Shown: positions 21,345 to 61,042, numbered from the stretch's first letter. The stretch: 64,000 nucleotides of DNA from Acidovorax sp. (GCF_046341535.1 NZ_JBKDRI010000159.1:4745-68744), one strand, 5' to 3'. The notes: generated by a model from the sequence alone, not told the origin. Made by a program: numbers and translations.

Positions 21345-21390
21345 GCTTTTTGCGACGAGCTTTCTCCCTGCTGCATCGGGTGATTGATGA

Positions 21391-21448
21391 TTATTTTTGG
21401 CCGTTTACGCTTGCCAGTATTGCCCTGATAGCTATTATTTTGATAGTG
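21391..21448 (-). repeat. Dispersed bipartite ~57-bp element, copy 1 (intergenic, btuD-cobQ)
   Basis: Minus strand cactatcaaaataatagct-atcagggcaa-tactgg-caagcg-taaacggcc-aaaaa aligns without gaps to the copies at 38671, 56159 and 58115. Confidence 0.7.
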
Positions 21449-38670: not shown

Positions 38671-38727
38671 CTTTTTTGCGCACTAGCGCACGTCAGCAAA
38701 GCGTTTCTAGCTATTGATTTAAGAGTA
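38671..38727 (-). repeat. Dispersed bipartite ~57-bp element, copy 2 (recR-MAPEG intergenic)
   Basis: Minus strand tactcttaaatcaatagct-agaaacgctt-tgctga-cgtgcg-ctagtgcgc-aaaaaag. Confidence 0.65.
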
Positions 38728-38878
38728 TTCTATCGCGCCATCCTTCGATGCGCCGGGCCGTCGGTACACGCTGGGGCCCTCCAGAAAACCGCAGAGGGCC
38801 ACCCTTCATGCCGCTATGCCCCAGCGTTCGGCACAAGCGTGACATGATCCACCGCCAGTATGCGGCCGTCAAATCACG

Positions 38879-46530: not shown

Positions 46531-46699
46531 CTAGGAGCCTGTCGGACTTGGAGCGTCGAAAGCGAATATCGGCCCCAGCGAGGACAGTTTTTGCCGAATT
46601 TGCAGCCCCATAGCCGAGCTATGGGGCAAAAAGGCGGTTCAAAATGGACCGCTGCGGTCGATTTGCAGCCGACGATTTCCAAGTCCGACAGGCTCCTAG
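46531..46699 (+). mobile_element. MITE family C, copy 1 (169 bp including CTAG flanks)
   Basis: 22-bp inverted repeats CTAGGAGCCTGTCGGACTTGGA; internal GCCCCATAGC-CGA-GCTATGGGGC hairpin. Confidence 0.88.
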
Positions 46700-46739
46700 C
46701 GCCGGATTATGGCACTGCAAGGCCCCTGGCAACGCCAGT

Positions 46740-48797: not shown

Positions 48798-48824
48798 GGT
48801 GTGCAACAAGTGAATCCAAAAGCG

Positions 48825-48993
48825 CTAGGAGCCTGTCGGACTTGGAAATCGTCGGCTGCAAATCGACCGCAGCGGCCCATTTTTAACCGCCTTTTTGCCC
48901 CATAGCTCGGCTATGGGGCTGCAAATTCGGCAAAAACTGTCCTCGCTGGGCCCGATTTTCGCTTTCGACGCTCCAAGTCCGACAGGCTCCTAG
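48825..48993 (-). mobile_element. MITE family C, copy 2 (inverted relative to copy 1)
   Basis: Reverse complement differs from copy 1 at 4 of 169 positions; CTAG flanks. Confidence 0.88.
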
Positions 48994-54695: not shown

Positions 54696-55712
54696 TTACG
54701 CGGCTGCGGCGCGCTGCAGGCGGTCGCGCACGCCTTCCCATTCTGGCGAGGCGGGCGGTGTTTCAACCCAGATCAGCTTTACCCCCTGCTCGTCAAAGCC
54801 GCGCAGCACGGCAAAGAGCTGTTGCGCGGTGGCGGCGGCGTCATCAGGCATGCGGCGCAGCACCAGCCGGGCCGATGGGGTGCGCAGTGCGGCCCGGGAG
54901 TACACGGCAATGTGGGCCGCCTCTGCGCCCAGCAGGTCCAGGCCGGTCTGCAGCGATTTGGCGTCCATCAGGCGCACCTTGGCCTGGGGGGCGTAGTGGG
55001 CCTGCAGGGTGCCCGATGCGCGCGGGCTCTGGCTGGACAGGTCGTCCCGCGACACAGGTGCGATGCCGCAGGCTTGCTGGATTTGCGCGCGCGAGATACC
55101 CCCGGGGCGCAGCAGCACCGGAACACCCCGGGTGCAATCCACGATGGTGCTCTCGATGCCCACTTCGCAGGGGCCGCCGTCCAGCACCAGCAGGCCATCA
55201 CCCAGCTCCTGCTGCACATGCAGCGCCGTGGTGGGGCTGACGCGGCCAAACCGGTTGGCGCTGGGCGCGGCCACACCCCAGACGGGCGCATCGCCGGGCA
55301 CGGCGGCATCGGCAGGCGCTGCGCACGCGGTCAGCAGGGCATGCGCCACCGGGTGCGCCGGGCAGCGCAGGCCTATGCTGTCCTGCCCACCGGCAGCCGC
55401 CGTGGCAATGCCGGGAAGGCGGGGCAGGATGAGGGTGAGCGGCCCGGGCCAGAACGCATCGACCAGCCGGCGTGCAAAGGCGGGCACCTCGCGCGAGAAA
55501 CGGTCTATGCCCGACGCATCAGCCACATGCACGATGAGCGGATGGTCGCTGGGACGCCCCTTGGCAGAAAAGACCAGCGCCACGGCGGCGTCGCTGCCCG
55601 CGTCGGCGGCCAGGCCGTACACCGTTTCGGTGGGCATGCCCACCAGCCCACCACCGCGCAGGGCGCGTGCTGCGGCGGCGATGGAGCCAGGCTGTGTGCC
55701 GTCCAGAATCAT
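54696..55712 (-). CDS. tsaC: L-threonylcarbamoyladenylate synthase (Sua5/TsaC)
   Basis: PTETVYGL, KGRPSDHPLIVH, APSAN, GIESTI; Sua5 C-terminal HYAP. Confidence 0.93.
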   Translation of the reverse strand: MILDGTQPGSIAAAARALRGGGLVGMPTETVYGLAADAGSDAAVALVFSAKGRPSDHPLIVHVADASGIDRFSREVPAFARRLVDAFWPGPLTLILPRLPGIATAAAGGQDSIGLRCPAHPVAHALLTACAAPADAAVPGDAPVWGVAAPSANRFGRVSPTTALHVQQELGDGLLVLDGGPCEVGIESTIVDCTRGVPVLLRPGGISRAQIQQACGIAPVSRDDLSSQSPRASGTLQAHYAPQAKVRLMDAKSLQTGLDLLGAEAAHIAVYSRAALRTPSARLVLRRMPDDAAATAQQLFAVLRGFDEQGVKLIWVETPPASPEWEGVRDRLQRAAAA

Positions 55713-55726
55713 GTGCGCCACCCGAT

Positions 55727-56896
55727 TCAGAACGGGGCAACGCCTAGCAGGGCGGCGGCCTGCAGCGCCGTGGCGCGCGCGGCCCCCGGCGTGGCAGCGG
55801 TGATGTTCAGGTGGCCCATCTTGCGGCCCCGCTTGGCCTCGCGCTTGCCGTACAGGTGCAGGTGGGTGCCCGGCAGGGCGAGCACCTTGGCCCAGGCAGG
55901 GGTCTGCGCCGTATCGCCATGGGCAAACCACAGATCCCCCAGCAGGTTGAGCATGACGGCCGCGCTGTGCTGGCGCGGTGGCGTGAGCGGCAGGCCCGCC
56001 ATCGTGCGCACCTGCAGCTCAAACTGCGACACGTCGCAGGCATCTTGGCTGTAGTGGCCGCTGTTGTGCGGACGTGGAGCTATCTCGTTGACCACCAGGC
56101 TGCCGTCTTGCAGCACGAAAAATTCCACACACAGCACGCCCACGTACTGGAGACCTTCTGCTACAGATTTGGAAGCATCTATCGCTTGTGTGGCAAGCGC
56201 GGGTGGCATATTTTCTTCATAAACCTCGGTCACGGCCAGGATGCCGTCGCGGTGCAGGTTGCGCTGCACCGGCAGATGCACCATGGCGCCATCGGCCCCG
56301 CGCGCCACGATGACGGAGCACTCGAGCTGCAGCGGCAGCATCTTCTCCAGCACGCAGGGCACCCGGCCCACGGCTTCCCAGGCAGCGGCCAGGTCGGCGG
56401 CGGTTTTCACCCGCACCTGGCCCTTGCCGTCGTAGCCCATGCGGGCGGTCTTGAGGATGCCGGGCAGCAGTTCGGGCGAGACGGCGGCAAGCTGCTGGCC
56501 CGTTTCGATCACGGCATGGGGGGCGCAGGGCACGCCGCAGGCCACGAAGTGGGCTTTCTCGCGCGCGCGGTCTTGCGCCACCGACACGGCGCTGGCGGCG
56601 GGCGATACCGGGCGCTGCCGGGCCAGCGCGGCCAGCGCGGCGGCGGGCACGTTTTCGAACTCGGTCGTCACCGCATCGGCCACGCGGGCCAGTTCGGCCA
56701 GACCGGCGGGGTCTTCGTAGCCGGTCTGGATGTGGTGATGGCTCACCAGCCCGGCCGGGCTGGTGGGGTCGGCATCGAGCACAGCCGTGAAGTAGCCCAT
56801 GGCCTGCGCCTGGTGCACGAACATGCGGCCGAGCTGGCCACCGCCGAGCACACCCAGCGTCGATCCTGGAAGGAGGGGCGTGAGCGCTTCGGTCAT
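55727..56896 (-). CDS. purK: N5-carboxyaminoimidazole ribonucleotide synthase
   Basis: [39 protein letters not shown]. Confidence 0.97.
56159..56218 (+). repeat. Dispersed bipartite element, copy 3 (inside purK, antisense to coding)
   Basis: tgctacagatttggaagca-tctatcgctt-gtgtgg-caagcg-cgggtggc-atattttc; locally AT-rich codons. Confidence 0.68.
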
Positions 56897-57387
56897 GCGG
56901 CGGGGGGCAAGGTCATGTCGCGTGCTGCCTGCGTCTGCTCGGCGCGGAAGGCTTCGAGGCGCTGGCGCAGCGCGGGGCTTTCGTTGGCCAGCAGCGCCAC
57001 CGCAAACAGGGCCGCGTTGGAGGCACCGGCCGTGCCGATGGCAAAGGTGGCCACCGGAATGCCCTTGGGCATCTGCACGATGGAGTGCAGCGAATCCACG
57101 CCTTGCAGGTGGCGGCTGGCCACCGGCACGCCCAGCACGGGCACGCTGGTCTTGGCTGCGATCATGCCCGGCAGATGCGCCGCACCCCCGGCCCCGGCGA
57201 TGATGGCCTTCAGGCCCCGGGCGGCTGCGGCCTCGGCGTAGGCGAACATGTCATCGGGCATGCGGTGGGCCGACACGACGCGGGCCTCATGAGCGATGCC
57301 GAACTGCTCGAGGATGTGCACTGCATGCTGCATGGTGTCCCAGTCGCTGCTGGAACCCATGACCACGCCGATCTGGATGGGTTTCAT
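56893..57387 (-). CDS. purE: N5-CAIR mutase
   Basis: [33 protein letters not shown]. Confidence 0.97.
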
Positions 57388-57539
57388 GGTGTGTGGGGTG
57401 GCGCTGGCCGGGGCCCAAGGCCCGCTGGCGCGGTGGGTAGAACCCGTAATTTTACGTTTTGCGTTCGCGCGGCCTCCAGCGCCACCGGGCGATGGGCGAA
57501 AATGGCGGCCACGCTTCACAGGACTGCGCCCGAACCATC

Positions 57540-58448
57540 ATGATTGACGTCACCGTAGAGAATTTTGAAGACGAGGTCGTTGCCGCCTCGATGAACGTGC
57601 CCGTGCTGGTCGATTTCTGGGCCCCGTGGTGCGGCCCGTGCAAGTCGCTCGGCCCGGTGCTGGAAAAACTCGAAACCGAGTACGCGGGCCGCTTCAAGCT
57701 GGCCAAGATCGACTCTGACCAGGAGCAGCAGATCGCCAGCATGTTCGGCATCCGCAGCATTCCCACCTGTGTGTTGCTCATGGAAGGCCGGCCCGTGGAC
57801 GGCTTCATGGGCGCCCTGCCCGAAGGCCAGGTACGCGCCTTCCTGGACAAGCACATTCCCTCGGCCGAGGCCATCGAGTCCGGCATCGAGGAAGACGACG
57901 CGATGCAAGCGCTGTCGTCGGGGGATGCAGACACCGCGCTGGAGAAGCTGCAGCACGCGGTGGCGACCGACCCGGGCAATGACGACGCCCGTTTTGACTA
58001 CGTCAAGCTGCTGCTGCAGCTGGGGCACGACGACGACGCCAAGGTCGCTTTTGCGCCAGTGATTGCCAAGGCAGCCGGCTCGCTGCGCCTGGGTGCGCTC
58101 AAGACCTGGATGGATGCTATTGATTTTGTAGCTTCCAGCGCTTCAGGGGCAGGCGTAGAGGCCGAATTTGATACCAAAATTGCCGCCAACAAACGCGACT
58201 TTGACGCACGCTACGCCCGCGCCCGCCTGCTGATGGTGCAGCAGCGCTGGACCGAGGCCATGGACGAGTTGCTGGAGATCCTGATGCGCGACAAGGCTTG
58301 GGGCGAAGAGGCGGCCCGCAAGACCTATGTGTCGATCCTGGAGATCATCGAGCCGCCCAAGGTCAAGGTCGCCGAGGGGCAGATCCCGCCCGAAGACCCG
58401 GTGGTGGCAAGCTACCGCCGCCGCCTCAGCTCGGTGGTGCTGAGTTGA
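57540..58448 (+). CDS. cnoX: Chaperedoxin CnoX/YbbN (thioredoxin plus TPR)
   Basis: VDFWAPWCGPCK, IRSIPT; TPR helices; YRRRLS C-terminus. Confidence 0.9.
   Translation: MIDVTVENFEDEVVAASMNVPVLVDFWAPWCGPCKSLGPVLEKLETEYAGRFKLAKIDSDQEQQIASMFGIRSIPTCVLLMEGRPVDGFMGALPEGQVRAFLDKHIPSAEAIESGIEEDDAMQALSSGDADTALEKLQHAVATDPGNDDARFDYVKLLLQLGHDDDAKVAFAPVIAKAAGSLRLGALKTWMDAIDFVASSASGAGVEAEFDTKIAANKRDFDARYARARLLMVQQRWTEAMDELLEILMRDKAWGEEAARKTYVSILEIIEPPKVKVAEGQIPPEDPVVASYRRRLSSVVLS
58115..58170 (+). repeat. Dispersed bipartite element, copy 4 (inside cnoX, sense)
   Basis: tgctattgattttgtagct-tccagcgctt-cagggg-caggcg-tagaggcc-gaatttg. Confidence 0.72.
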
Positions 58449-59590: not shown

Positions 59591-60856
59591 GTGCCCCACA
59601 CCACGTCCGATTCGTCCCGCCCCGCGCCTGTGTCTGCGCCGGATCCGGGCCTGCAGCGCCGCGAGCTCTGGCTGCTGATCACGCTCGCTGGCGTGCAGTT
59701 CACGCACATCCTTGATTTCATGATCATGATGCCGCTGGGGCCGCAGTTCACCCGGCTGTTTGGCATCAGCGACGCGCAGTTTGGCTTGCTGGTGTCGGCC
59801 TACACGCTGGCCGCGGGCGCCTCGGGCCTGCTGGCGTCCACCTACATCGACCGCTTTGGCCGCAAGCGGCTGCTGCTGGTGCTTTACTCGCTGTTCGGTC
59901 TGGCCACACTGGCCTGCGGGCTCGCCCCGACGTACGGCTCGCTGATGGTCGCGCGCGTGCTGGCCGGTTTCTTTGGCGGGGTGTTGTCGGCCATGTCGCA
60001 GACCATCGTGGCCGACGTGGTGCCGTTTGAACGGCGGGGCCAGGCCATGGGGATCGTGATGACGTCGTTTTCGTTGTCCACCGTGGCCGGGGTGCCGTTG
60101 GGGCTGCTGCTGGCCCAGTGGGGCAGTTGGCACACACCGTTTTTTGCCATTGCCGCCATGGTCGGCATCCTGGCCGTGGTGGCGGCGCGCACCATGCCCA
60201 CGCTGTCGGCGCATGTGCATGCGGCCTCGGGCCGCTCCGCCATCCAGGGCATCCTGCAGGTGCTGGCCGATGCCAACCATCGCTGGGCGTTTGTGTTCAC
60301 CGCGCTGCTGATGTTCACCGGGTTTACGGTGATTCCGTACATCACCATTTACTTGCAGACCAATGCAGGGGTGCGCGCCGAGCAGATCCCGCTGGTCTAT
60401 CTGTGCGGCGGCGTGACGACGCTCTTCACGGCACGCCTGTTCGGACGCCTGACCGACCGCTACGGCAAGGTCCAGACCTTCAGAGCGCTGGCGCTGGGTG
60501 CAGCGCCCTGCCTGCTGGGGATCACCCTGGTGGCAGGCCATCCGCTGTGGGTGGTCCTGATCGTCTCCACGCTGATGTTTGCGATCGTCAGCGGACGCAT
60601 GATTCCGGGCATGTCCATCGTTGCATCGGCCGCCCAGCCGCAACTGCGCGGCACATTCATGACGCTCAATGCGTCGGTGCAGTCAGCCTCGATGGGCGTG
60701 GCCTCGGTGGTGGGTGGCCTGGTCATCAGCCGCGATGCACAGGGGCTGATGCAGGGCTACTGGATGTGCGCCGTGTTGGGCATTGCGGGGAGCCTGTTGT
60801 CGATGCTTGCCGTCGCACAACTGCACATGCACGGGGGCCCGGCCAGGCCGCGCTAG
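59591..60856 (+). CDS. MFS transporter
   Basis: DFMIMMPLG; motif A DRFGRKR; about 12 TM; start uncertain. Confidence 0.9.
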
Positions 60857-61042
60857 AGCCCGTCGGACTTGGAGCGTCGAAAGCGAGAATCGGCCCCAGC
60901 GAGGACAGGTTTTGCCTAATTTGCAGCCCCATAGCCGAGCTATGGGGCAAAAAGGCGGTGCTGTCGAAGAGCGGCGAAGGCAAAAAATGGACCGCTGCGG
61001 TCGATTTGCAGCCGACGACTTCCAAGTCCGACAGGCTCCTAG
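60853..61042 (+). mobile_element. MITE family C, copy 3 (190 bp; longer internal segment, decayed left end)
   Basis: Same body as copy 1 with 22 extra nt; left end CTAGAGCCCGTC...; the flanking TAG is the MFS stop codon. Confidence 0.85.

Follow-up and report, generated by a model that had tools for sequence, protein, structure and literature searches.

Uptake signal sequences (USS) of the Pasteurellaceae and DNA uptake sequences (DUS) of the Neisseriaceae have asymmetric cores of 9-12 bp that occur about once per kb, and DUS have a dedicated receptor, ComP. Here we describe an element of ~68 bp, one copy of which lies within the purK gene of a 64,000-nucleotide stretch of DNA from Acidovorax sp. 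(GCF_046341535.1, NZ_JBKDRI010000159.1:4745-68744; this whole stretch is called the window, and positions are counted from its first letter). The element resembles USS and DUS in being dispersed and over-represented and in occurring on both strands, with no bias for the direction of genes or of replication. Like them it is found between genes, especially at gene ends, and its copies within genes are accommodated through codon choice, in tolerant segments and in preferred frames. Orthologous sites are kept and related lineages lack the element, and a lineage dialect of the kind known from USS and DUS is suggested, effectively in one lineage; in addition, some species of the host clade are naturally transformable, reportedly with DNA of their own species alone (PMC4212676). 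It differs in its length, in being bipartite with a palindromic arm and in its density of ~1 copy per 10 kb; furthermore, ComP-type pilins are not co-distributed with it, and a role in uptake is here a prediction. Because size and density do not agree and a co-distributed receptor was not found, we did not file the element as a member of the USS/DUS class. Among the known systems, it behaves most like uptake sequences.

Other DNA sites and repeats offer partial parallels. The sites parS and matS and those bound by SlmA and Noc number 10-70 per genome, are confined to a region of the chromosome and have known binding proteins. As with the element, these are palindromic sites in double-stranded DNA which are compatible with coding sequence and conserved between species; the element, however, has hundreds of sites, no regional restriction among the matches listed and no known protein. 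Repetitive extragenic palindromic (REP) sequences are GC-rich extragenic hairpins tied to RAYT transposases, and their positions are not conserved between genera. With REPs, BIMEs and REPINs the element shares hundreds of short palindrome-containing copies and a preference for the 3' ends of genes, but it is AT-rich and lacks covariation in its stem, 17% of its copies lie in genes and their positions are kept across genera. BRE, a repeat of Bordetella and some Comamonadaceae, is ~90 bp long with 69% GC, often forms variable tandem arrays and reaches at most 29 copies (Hot et al., 2011; PMC3110155). It likewise is a repeat common to Betaproteobacteria including Acidovorax and Polaromonas and is sometimes located in coding sequence (PMC3110155), but its description sets it apart from the AT-rich element, which has a single copy per site and hundreds of copies. 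A limited full-text literature search found no published description of a family of ~68 bp.

The low-GC island of purK and a dispersed element

The gene order around purK is purC-purE-purK-tsaC/sua5, and PurK has a relative of known structure (PDB 4izo, E 1e-134) to which the region of interest aligns ungapped. Within purK the GC content, taken over stretches of 60 nt, falls from ~0.72 to ~0.50-0.53, and third-position GC is 0.29 in codons 224-247 compared to 0.84 in the whole gene. The minus strand from 56223 to 56159 reads TAT GAA GAA AAT ATG CCA CCC GCG CTT GCC ACA CAA GCG ATA GAT GCT TCC AAA TCT GTA GCA inside purK. The original prediction, made from the sequence alone, had noticed AT-rich codons at 56159-56223 together with a perfect CGCTTG-N5-CAAGCG dyad and had proposed a repeat element that is embedded antisense in purK without breaking the protein. 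Both the codon contrast and the dyad were confirmed; the dyad occurs only once in the window, and a match was obtained in 3 of 100 shuffles.

No second copy of the 121-nt purK segment was detected by BLAST against the own 3.3-Mb genome, and exact-seed repeat finding gave no further copy. Single-sequence nhmmer queries with an intergenic copy, the purK segment and a segment of a thioredoxin/TPR gene each returned dozens of weak matches, including one another. A profile iterated from the intergenic copy converged on 256 matches at E<=0.01, compared to 0 in the reversed genome. To avoid circularity, a leave-one-out profile of 79 columns was built from the 132 best copies with purK excluded; at the same threshold it detected 328 copies, whereas the reversed genome yielded 0 copies and a best E of 4.6. 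This profile matched purK at 56228-56159 ungapped, over profile positions 5-74. The family is thus degenerate and visible only by profile search, and BLAST had wrongly suggested a unique sequence. The true end of the element is at 56228, 5 bases past the coordinate given in the original prediction.

The low-GC island is very probably an in-frame copy of a bipartite DNA signal of ~68 bp, which was written into purK by substitutions and not by insertion. The signal consists of a T/A tract, followed by CGC..G...GCG and then by the palindrome AGCTAY-N7-RTAGCA. Its length was taken from the extended alignment, which reads aTTTT-n-AAAAA-GCC-n-gTTgCGCttG-n-(a/t)(a/t)GCG-n-AGCTAY-N7-RTAGCAa, with CGC..G, AGCTAY-N7-RTAGCA and the upstream T/A tract as the conserved parts. 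The signal has about 330 copies in this Acidovorax genome, and in many Comamonadaceae the core pattern is matched exactly 33-388 times. The parts of the purK copy and the other copies in the window are listed in Table 1.

Table 1. Positions in the window of purK, its embedded element and further copies of the family.
Feature	Position	Strand	Evidence or remark
purK (N5-carboxyaminoimidazole ribonucleotide synthase), 389 aa	55727..56896	-	Open reading frame; NCBIfam NF004677, E 7e-187
Embedded copy of the dispersed ~68-bp element	56159..56228	-	purK codons 223-246; leave-one-out profile, 28.9 bits, E 2.1e-6
Upstream T-tract/A-tract part of the element, GAGGTTTATGAAGAAAATATGCCACC, coding for a loop	56200..56228	-	Aligned to family aTTTT...AAAAA..GCC
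Left arm, CGCTTGCCACACAAGCG, the dyad of the original prediction	56183..56199	-	Matches family CGC..G....(A/T)(A/T)GCG
Right arm, TGCTTCCAAATCTGTAGCA, degenerate copy of the family palindrome AGCTAY-N7-RTAGCA, read GCT ... GTA GCA	56159..56177	-	Profile alignment
Second gene-embedded copy, non-coding strand of a thioredoxin/TPR (CnoX/YbbN-like) gene at 57459-58448 (+)	58113..58186	-	42.7 bits, E 1e-10; gene identity from Pfam domains
Intergenic copy, profile seed	21382..21448	+	36.8 bits, E 7e-9
Further family copy	38675..38730	+	27.7 bits, E 5e-6

The second gene-embedded copy is located 2 kb from purK and has a better profile score than the purK copy. The label "antisense" that had been given to the purK copy depends on an arbitrary choice of the forward strand: in the orientation of the profile, the purK copy is on the coding strand and the thioredoxin/TPR copy on the non-coding strand.

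Codon and protein alignments with 30 and then 110 orthologs showed no length difference at the island, also for orthologs without it, and neither terminal inverted repeats nor target duplications were found. A miniature inverted-repeat transposable element (MITE) or other inserted element was rejected on the basis of these alignments. The original prediction had left open whether the segment is an insertion or a replacement; the colinearity with 110 orthologs points to a replacement by substitutions, and together with the leave-one-out match it bears out the view that a repeat element is embedded here without breaking the protein. In the AlphaFold model of PurK (pLDDT 92.5, pTM 0.90), codons 224-247 correspond to the last part of strand 219-225, to loop 226-231 and to helix 232-248. 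Within the genus this is the most variable part of PurK, with a pairwise amino-acid difference of 0.253 compared to 0.090 elsewhere. Since island-free orthologs have a similar Ala/Ile/Val-rich helix encoded by GC-rich codons, the element could be written largely by synonymous changes. It occupies the least constrained part of PurK, a loop and a helix whose Ala/Ile/Val/Lys residues the motif bases can spell.

By eye, a mini-ORF of 13 codons (ATG AAG AAA ... TAG) was seen across the island in the +1 frame, at 56221-56180 of the minus strand; it is a by-product of TAT-GAA and ATA-G and presumably lacks a function. This mini-ORF and an in-frame start-like motif, GAAGGAAATATG, were dropped because the start position varies between L, M, V and I among orthologs.

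Codon choice and co-occurrence of island and family

The island is present in 19 of 22 same-genus (Acidovorax) species, with a third-position GC of 0.21-0.38 compared to 0.79-0.90 gene-wide; absence of the motif from orthologs, which the original prediction had named as evidence against itself, is therefore not what was found. These 19 species share the A/T-ending island codons CAA GCG GTA GCA GCT GCG AAA TCT GTA GCA GAA, and the remaining three species have ordinary GC-rich codons at the island. Among 80 named Comamonadaceae loci, the island was detected in Giesbergeria, Simplicispira, some Comamonas, Paracidovorax, Rhodoferax, Hylemonella, Polaromonas and Xylophilus, and it is missing from many other Comamonadaceae loci at similar protein identity.

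A/T-ending codons of the window purK stay A/T-ending in 190 of 219 cases (87%) within the island, compared to 169 of 698 (24%) elsewhere. The wobble bases kept in 46 island-bearing orthologs are T59 (100%), A71 (98%), A20 (89%) and A74 (80%), and those at uninformative motif positions (codons 235, 236, 242, 244) vary freely. Base conservation correlates with motif information (rho 0.36, p 0.002 for 70 positions; rho 0.40, p 0.054 for the 24 third positions). The codon alignment of orthologs that the original prediction had suggested thus gave a divided answer: wobble bases are kept at the informative motif positions, but an overall excess of synonymous conservation was not found. The conserved feature is the bias of codon choice towards A/T, and not overall synonymous identity.

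The family was counted in whole genomes as exact matches of a specific core pattern, using the reversed pattern as control. Within the genus, the three genomes without the island (G009, G019, G002) have 2, 1 and 6 pattern matches, respectively, which is control level, and the remaining, island-bearing genomes mostly have 46-198 (two incomplete genomes have 6 and 11). At the family level, 22 of the 26 genomes with the island contain 33-388 matches (controls 0-11), and 47 of the 49 genomes without it are at control level, the other two having 118 and a borderline 21. Twenty-six of these 47 family-negative genomes are of moderate or low third-position GC, which rules out general GC pressure as the cause. 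Taken over ~100 Comamonadaceae genomes, both island and family are present in 41 and neither in 55; 3 have only the island and 1 only the family. The association of island and family is strong, but it has been shown to be independent only to a modest degree. In 16 other families of the order, the element was not detected.

The copy embedded in the thioredoxin/TPR gene replicates this pattern: most family-positive loci have it in the orthologous place, at ~-1250 relative to the start of purK, and no profile match at all was obtained in the 55 loci that are family-negative. Since the purK island is kept only where the genome-wide signal exists, the purK DNA appears to be under a pressure of its own, exerted by a reader. 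PurK is intact, while a pressure at the DNA level very probably holds the wobble bases. The retention of A/T-ending codons and the tie to family-bearing genomes uphold the proposal of the original prediction that codon choice is constrained by a signal at the DNA level.

A few genomes are of interest in their own right. Islands in purK accompanied by few or no family copies were seen in a Burkholderiaceae metagenome-assembled genome (MAG; L082) and in L041, L048 and L053 (Comamonas), with 2, 5, 5 and 16 copies, respectively; these islands could be relics or could belong to a different dialect. A Rhodoferax MAG (L063) has 118 family copies and lacks the purK island.

Recognition of the element and its possible function

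Pairing between the arms showed no covariation across ~256 genomic copies, the Watson-Crick fraction being equal to the expectation for independent columns at every variable pair of both potential hairpins. The RNA of the purK segment folds no better than shuffled sequences (z -0.43), Rfam gave no match at any copy in the window, and a sigma-70 scan yielded 0 sites in 55600-56900. A hairpin or other RNA element was rejected on the basis of the covariation, folding and Rfam results, and an internal or antisense promoter was rejected on the basis of the empty scan and of hexamers that, by eye, are poor and not conserved. The dyad that the original prediction had singled out is therefore present but does not form the conserved core: only 15 of 47 orthologs with the island have it in perfect form, and neither covariation nor a favourable fold was found. 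Missing covariation and missing promoter geometry make recognition of double-stranded DNA the likeliest mode, and the palindromic arm suggests a dimeric reader. The reader of the signal would be a protein, probably a dimer, that recognizes a specific sequence in double-stranded DNA and is present only in family-bearing genomes. When a lineage loses this recognition system, the genome-wide family and the purK island would decay together to GC-rich codons.

Approximately 80% of the family copies are intergenic, in either orientation, and ~17% are located within genes (16 sense, 17 antisense). Intergenic copies are found in 27 convergent, 7 divergent and 61 codirectional spacers (27 along the direction of the genes, 34 against it), a distribution that rules out a promoter family and in which gene ends are preferred. 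Copies are single per site, with only 3 pairs closer than 600 bp, and the density in the 3.3-Mb genome is ~1 copy/10 kb. Their spacing is near random (coefficient of variation, CV, ~1.0), with a depletion of gaps <2 kb (11% observed compared to 25 +/- 3% expected), and among the matches listed neither a copy-rich nor a copy-free part of the chromosome was apparent. Copy orientation is unrelated to the local GC skew in the own genome (94:92); a replication-strand polarity, indicated by a run of ~55 '+' matches in genome G056, was rejected as an artefact of listing matches per strand. Of the other gene-embedded copies, 16 of 20 use the frame in which the palindrome is translated as GCT-ATx-...-xTA-GCx, a strong preference that holds for both orientations, and purK uses the same frame; one of the two other reading frames is closed by TAG. 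Many intergenic copies of the own genome overlap the last 1-19 nt of a flanking gene, and in many cases the stop codon of the neighbouring gene may be provided by the TAG of the element, or by CTA in the opposite strand.

A distinct left arm, CGCTAGTGnAATATGC (CGCTAG type), is present in 84 of 136 copies of G006, a complete genome of the same genus; it was found in 5 of 79 copies of G022 and in 0-1 copies of all other genomes. The codons GCG CTA GTG in purK are restricted to G006 and G022 and change Ala to Val in the helix. This matching of dialects hints either at co-evolution with a reader that changes or at conversion. The left arm of G006 is very homogeneous (CGCTAGTGCAATATGC...), and the 84 copies of the CGCTAG type show a mild regional strand bias, with 4+/18- at 1.0-2.1 Mb and 18+/8- at 4.0-5.2 Mb.

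With respect to competence genes, ComEC was detected in 43 of 44 family-positive genomes and in 78 of 80 overall. Minor pilins of the ComP_DUS type (PF16732) are encoded in 75 of 80 Comamonadaceae genomes and in 0 of 14 control genomes; the copy of the own genome is located at G000:C201:1428-1691. Since both are near-universal with or without the family, neither supports a link to uptake. The ComP_DUS match of G006, the genome with the divergent dialect, is weak and partial (E 2.5e-9, positions 1-55). Acidovorax temperans, A. facilis and Verminephrobacter eiseniae are naturally transformable, transformation with DNA of another Acidovorax species was not detected, and competition experiments in Verminephrobacter gave hints of sequence-specific uptake (PMC4212676).

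Several rival explanations of the island in purK were weighed. An element acting at the RNA or transcriptional level (internal or antisense promoter, hairpin, RNase site or target of a small RNA) might regulate the purE-purK-tsaC operon, and an AT-rich stretch within a GC-rich gene, an essential tsaC/sua5-like gene downstream of purK and a single terminator-like match on the plus strand, formed by the dyad and a following T-rich run, are in line with this. With the sigma-70, Rfam, folding and covariation analyses all negative, and with copies that have no orientation preference relative to genes and often lie between convergent genes, such an element is very unlikely. Still harder to credit is a cluster of rare codons at which ribosomes would slow down, between strand 219-225 and helix 232-248, to the benefit of PurK folding, the resemblance to the repeat being incidental. 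As in described clusters, where rare codons are conserved at one position of a housekeeping gene, a run of A/T-ending rare codons (ATA, GTA, TCT, GCA, GCT, AAA) is conserved at one secondary-structure boundary; here, however, the exact bases are conserved in proportion to motif information and not merely their rarity, the 68-bp sequence is mostly non-coding elsewhere, and its gene-embedded copies lie in both orientations. Moreover, 55 orthologs of similar sequence use common codons, and these come from exactly the genomes without the family. A selfish or recombinational origin, through transposition or gene conversion between copies, would make the purK copy a passenger that is renewed by conversion and confers no benefit. 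Such an origin would agree with a copy number that varies widely and with a consensus that varies from genome to genome and is uniform locally, for example in the CGCTAGTGCAATATGC type of G006, where the purK copy follows the local consensus even at an amino-acid cost. We consider it improbable nonetheless: there is no length change compared to island-free orthologs, terminal inverted repeats and target duplications are missing, and different genera carry the copy in one and the same site, at protein identities of 62-91%. Conversion also requires flanking homology, which the unrelated loci do not have, and the purK copy is a weak, protein-constrained match and not a fresh consensus copy.

The embedded signal might instead have an architectural role and provide sites for a dimeric chromosome-associated protein, either nucleoid-associated or of the ParB, Noc, SlmA or MatP type, that are required at intervals along the chromosome and placed within a gene where a spacer is lacking. 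The sites parS, matS and those of SlmA are often located within genes. The palindromic right arm AGCTAY-N7-RTAGCA with its flanking A/T tracts fits a DNA-bending dimer, and the missing bias for strand or gene orientation, the depletion of short gaps and the orthologous positions kept across genera point in the same direction. Apart from the few short gaps, however, the spacing is random-like, copy number varies more than 10-fold (33 to 388) between genomes of similar size, and the signal is missing from whole lineages; a candidate protein is not known, and the matches listed reveal no copy-enriched or copy-free region. We regard an architectural role as doubtful, but as the strongest of the rival explanations. 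The function towards which we lean, with a likelihood somewhat short of even, is that of a species-specific self-recognition tag in natural transformation, comparable to USS and DUS. Biased uptake and recombination of tag-bearing DNA would spread copies and maintain them at tolerant sites, including those within genes. A tag of this kind is favoured because copies are embedded on both strands, with a frame bias and at tolerant sites; because a dialect exists, whole lineages have lost the signal and ComEC is present in nearly all family-positive genomes; and because of the published transformability, the preference for own-species DNA and the hints of uptake specificity (PMC4212676).

Several results weigh against this interpretation. 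A candidate reader protein is not yet known. ComEC and the ComP_DUS pilins are equally common in family-positive and family-negative genomes, and the dialect can be followed in essentially a single lineage (G006 and, weakly, G022). Island and family disagree in four genomes: three have the island with few or no family copies, and one has 118 copies and no island. The purK tree provides only 4 well-supported independent contrasts; all 4 agree, but with so few a sign test cannot become significant (p = 0.125). The overall synonymous difference in the island is ordinary (0.234 compared to 0.287; rank 127 of 366 sliding windows). Finally, an element of ~68 bp with a palindromic arm and ~1 copy per 10 kb is unlike the 9-12-bp asymmetric cores of USS and DUS at ~1 per kb.

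A more far-reaching and speculative proposal, to which we give rather low credence, is that the 68-bp element is the uptake-specificity signal of transformable Comamonadaceae (Acidovorax, Verminephrobacter, Rhodoferax, Polaromonas and others) and represents a third, independently evolved DNA-uptake-sequence system that is read by a dimeric receptor other than ComP. If true, the signal of this uptake system would be unusual in its length, its bipartite make-up and its palindrome, and its force would suffice to rewrite codons, and in places amino acids, of housekeeping genes such as purK. The self-recognition tag aside, the embedded signal itself shows that a non-coding DNA signal can keep ~24 consecutive codons of an essential biosynthetic gene off the codon preference of the genome over the very long term. 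The ~100 genomes serve as a natural loss-of-function control, in which the constraint vanishes when the genome-wide signal vanishes. The purK island offers a testable handle on a DNA-recognition system in a large and environmentally important family, since synonymous recoding of the island would be possible without a change of the protein, yielding a pair with the signal present or absent and the same PurK.

A further repeat in the window

A repeat of ~172 nt is present in the window in three copies (46531-46702, 48822-48993 and 60856-61042), which are 95-98% identical and two of which are mutually inverted. It has no relation to the purK element and has the appearance of a family of miniature transposons.

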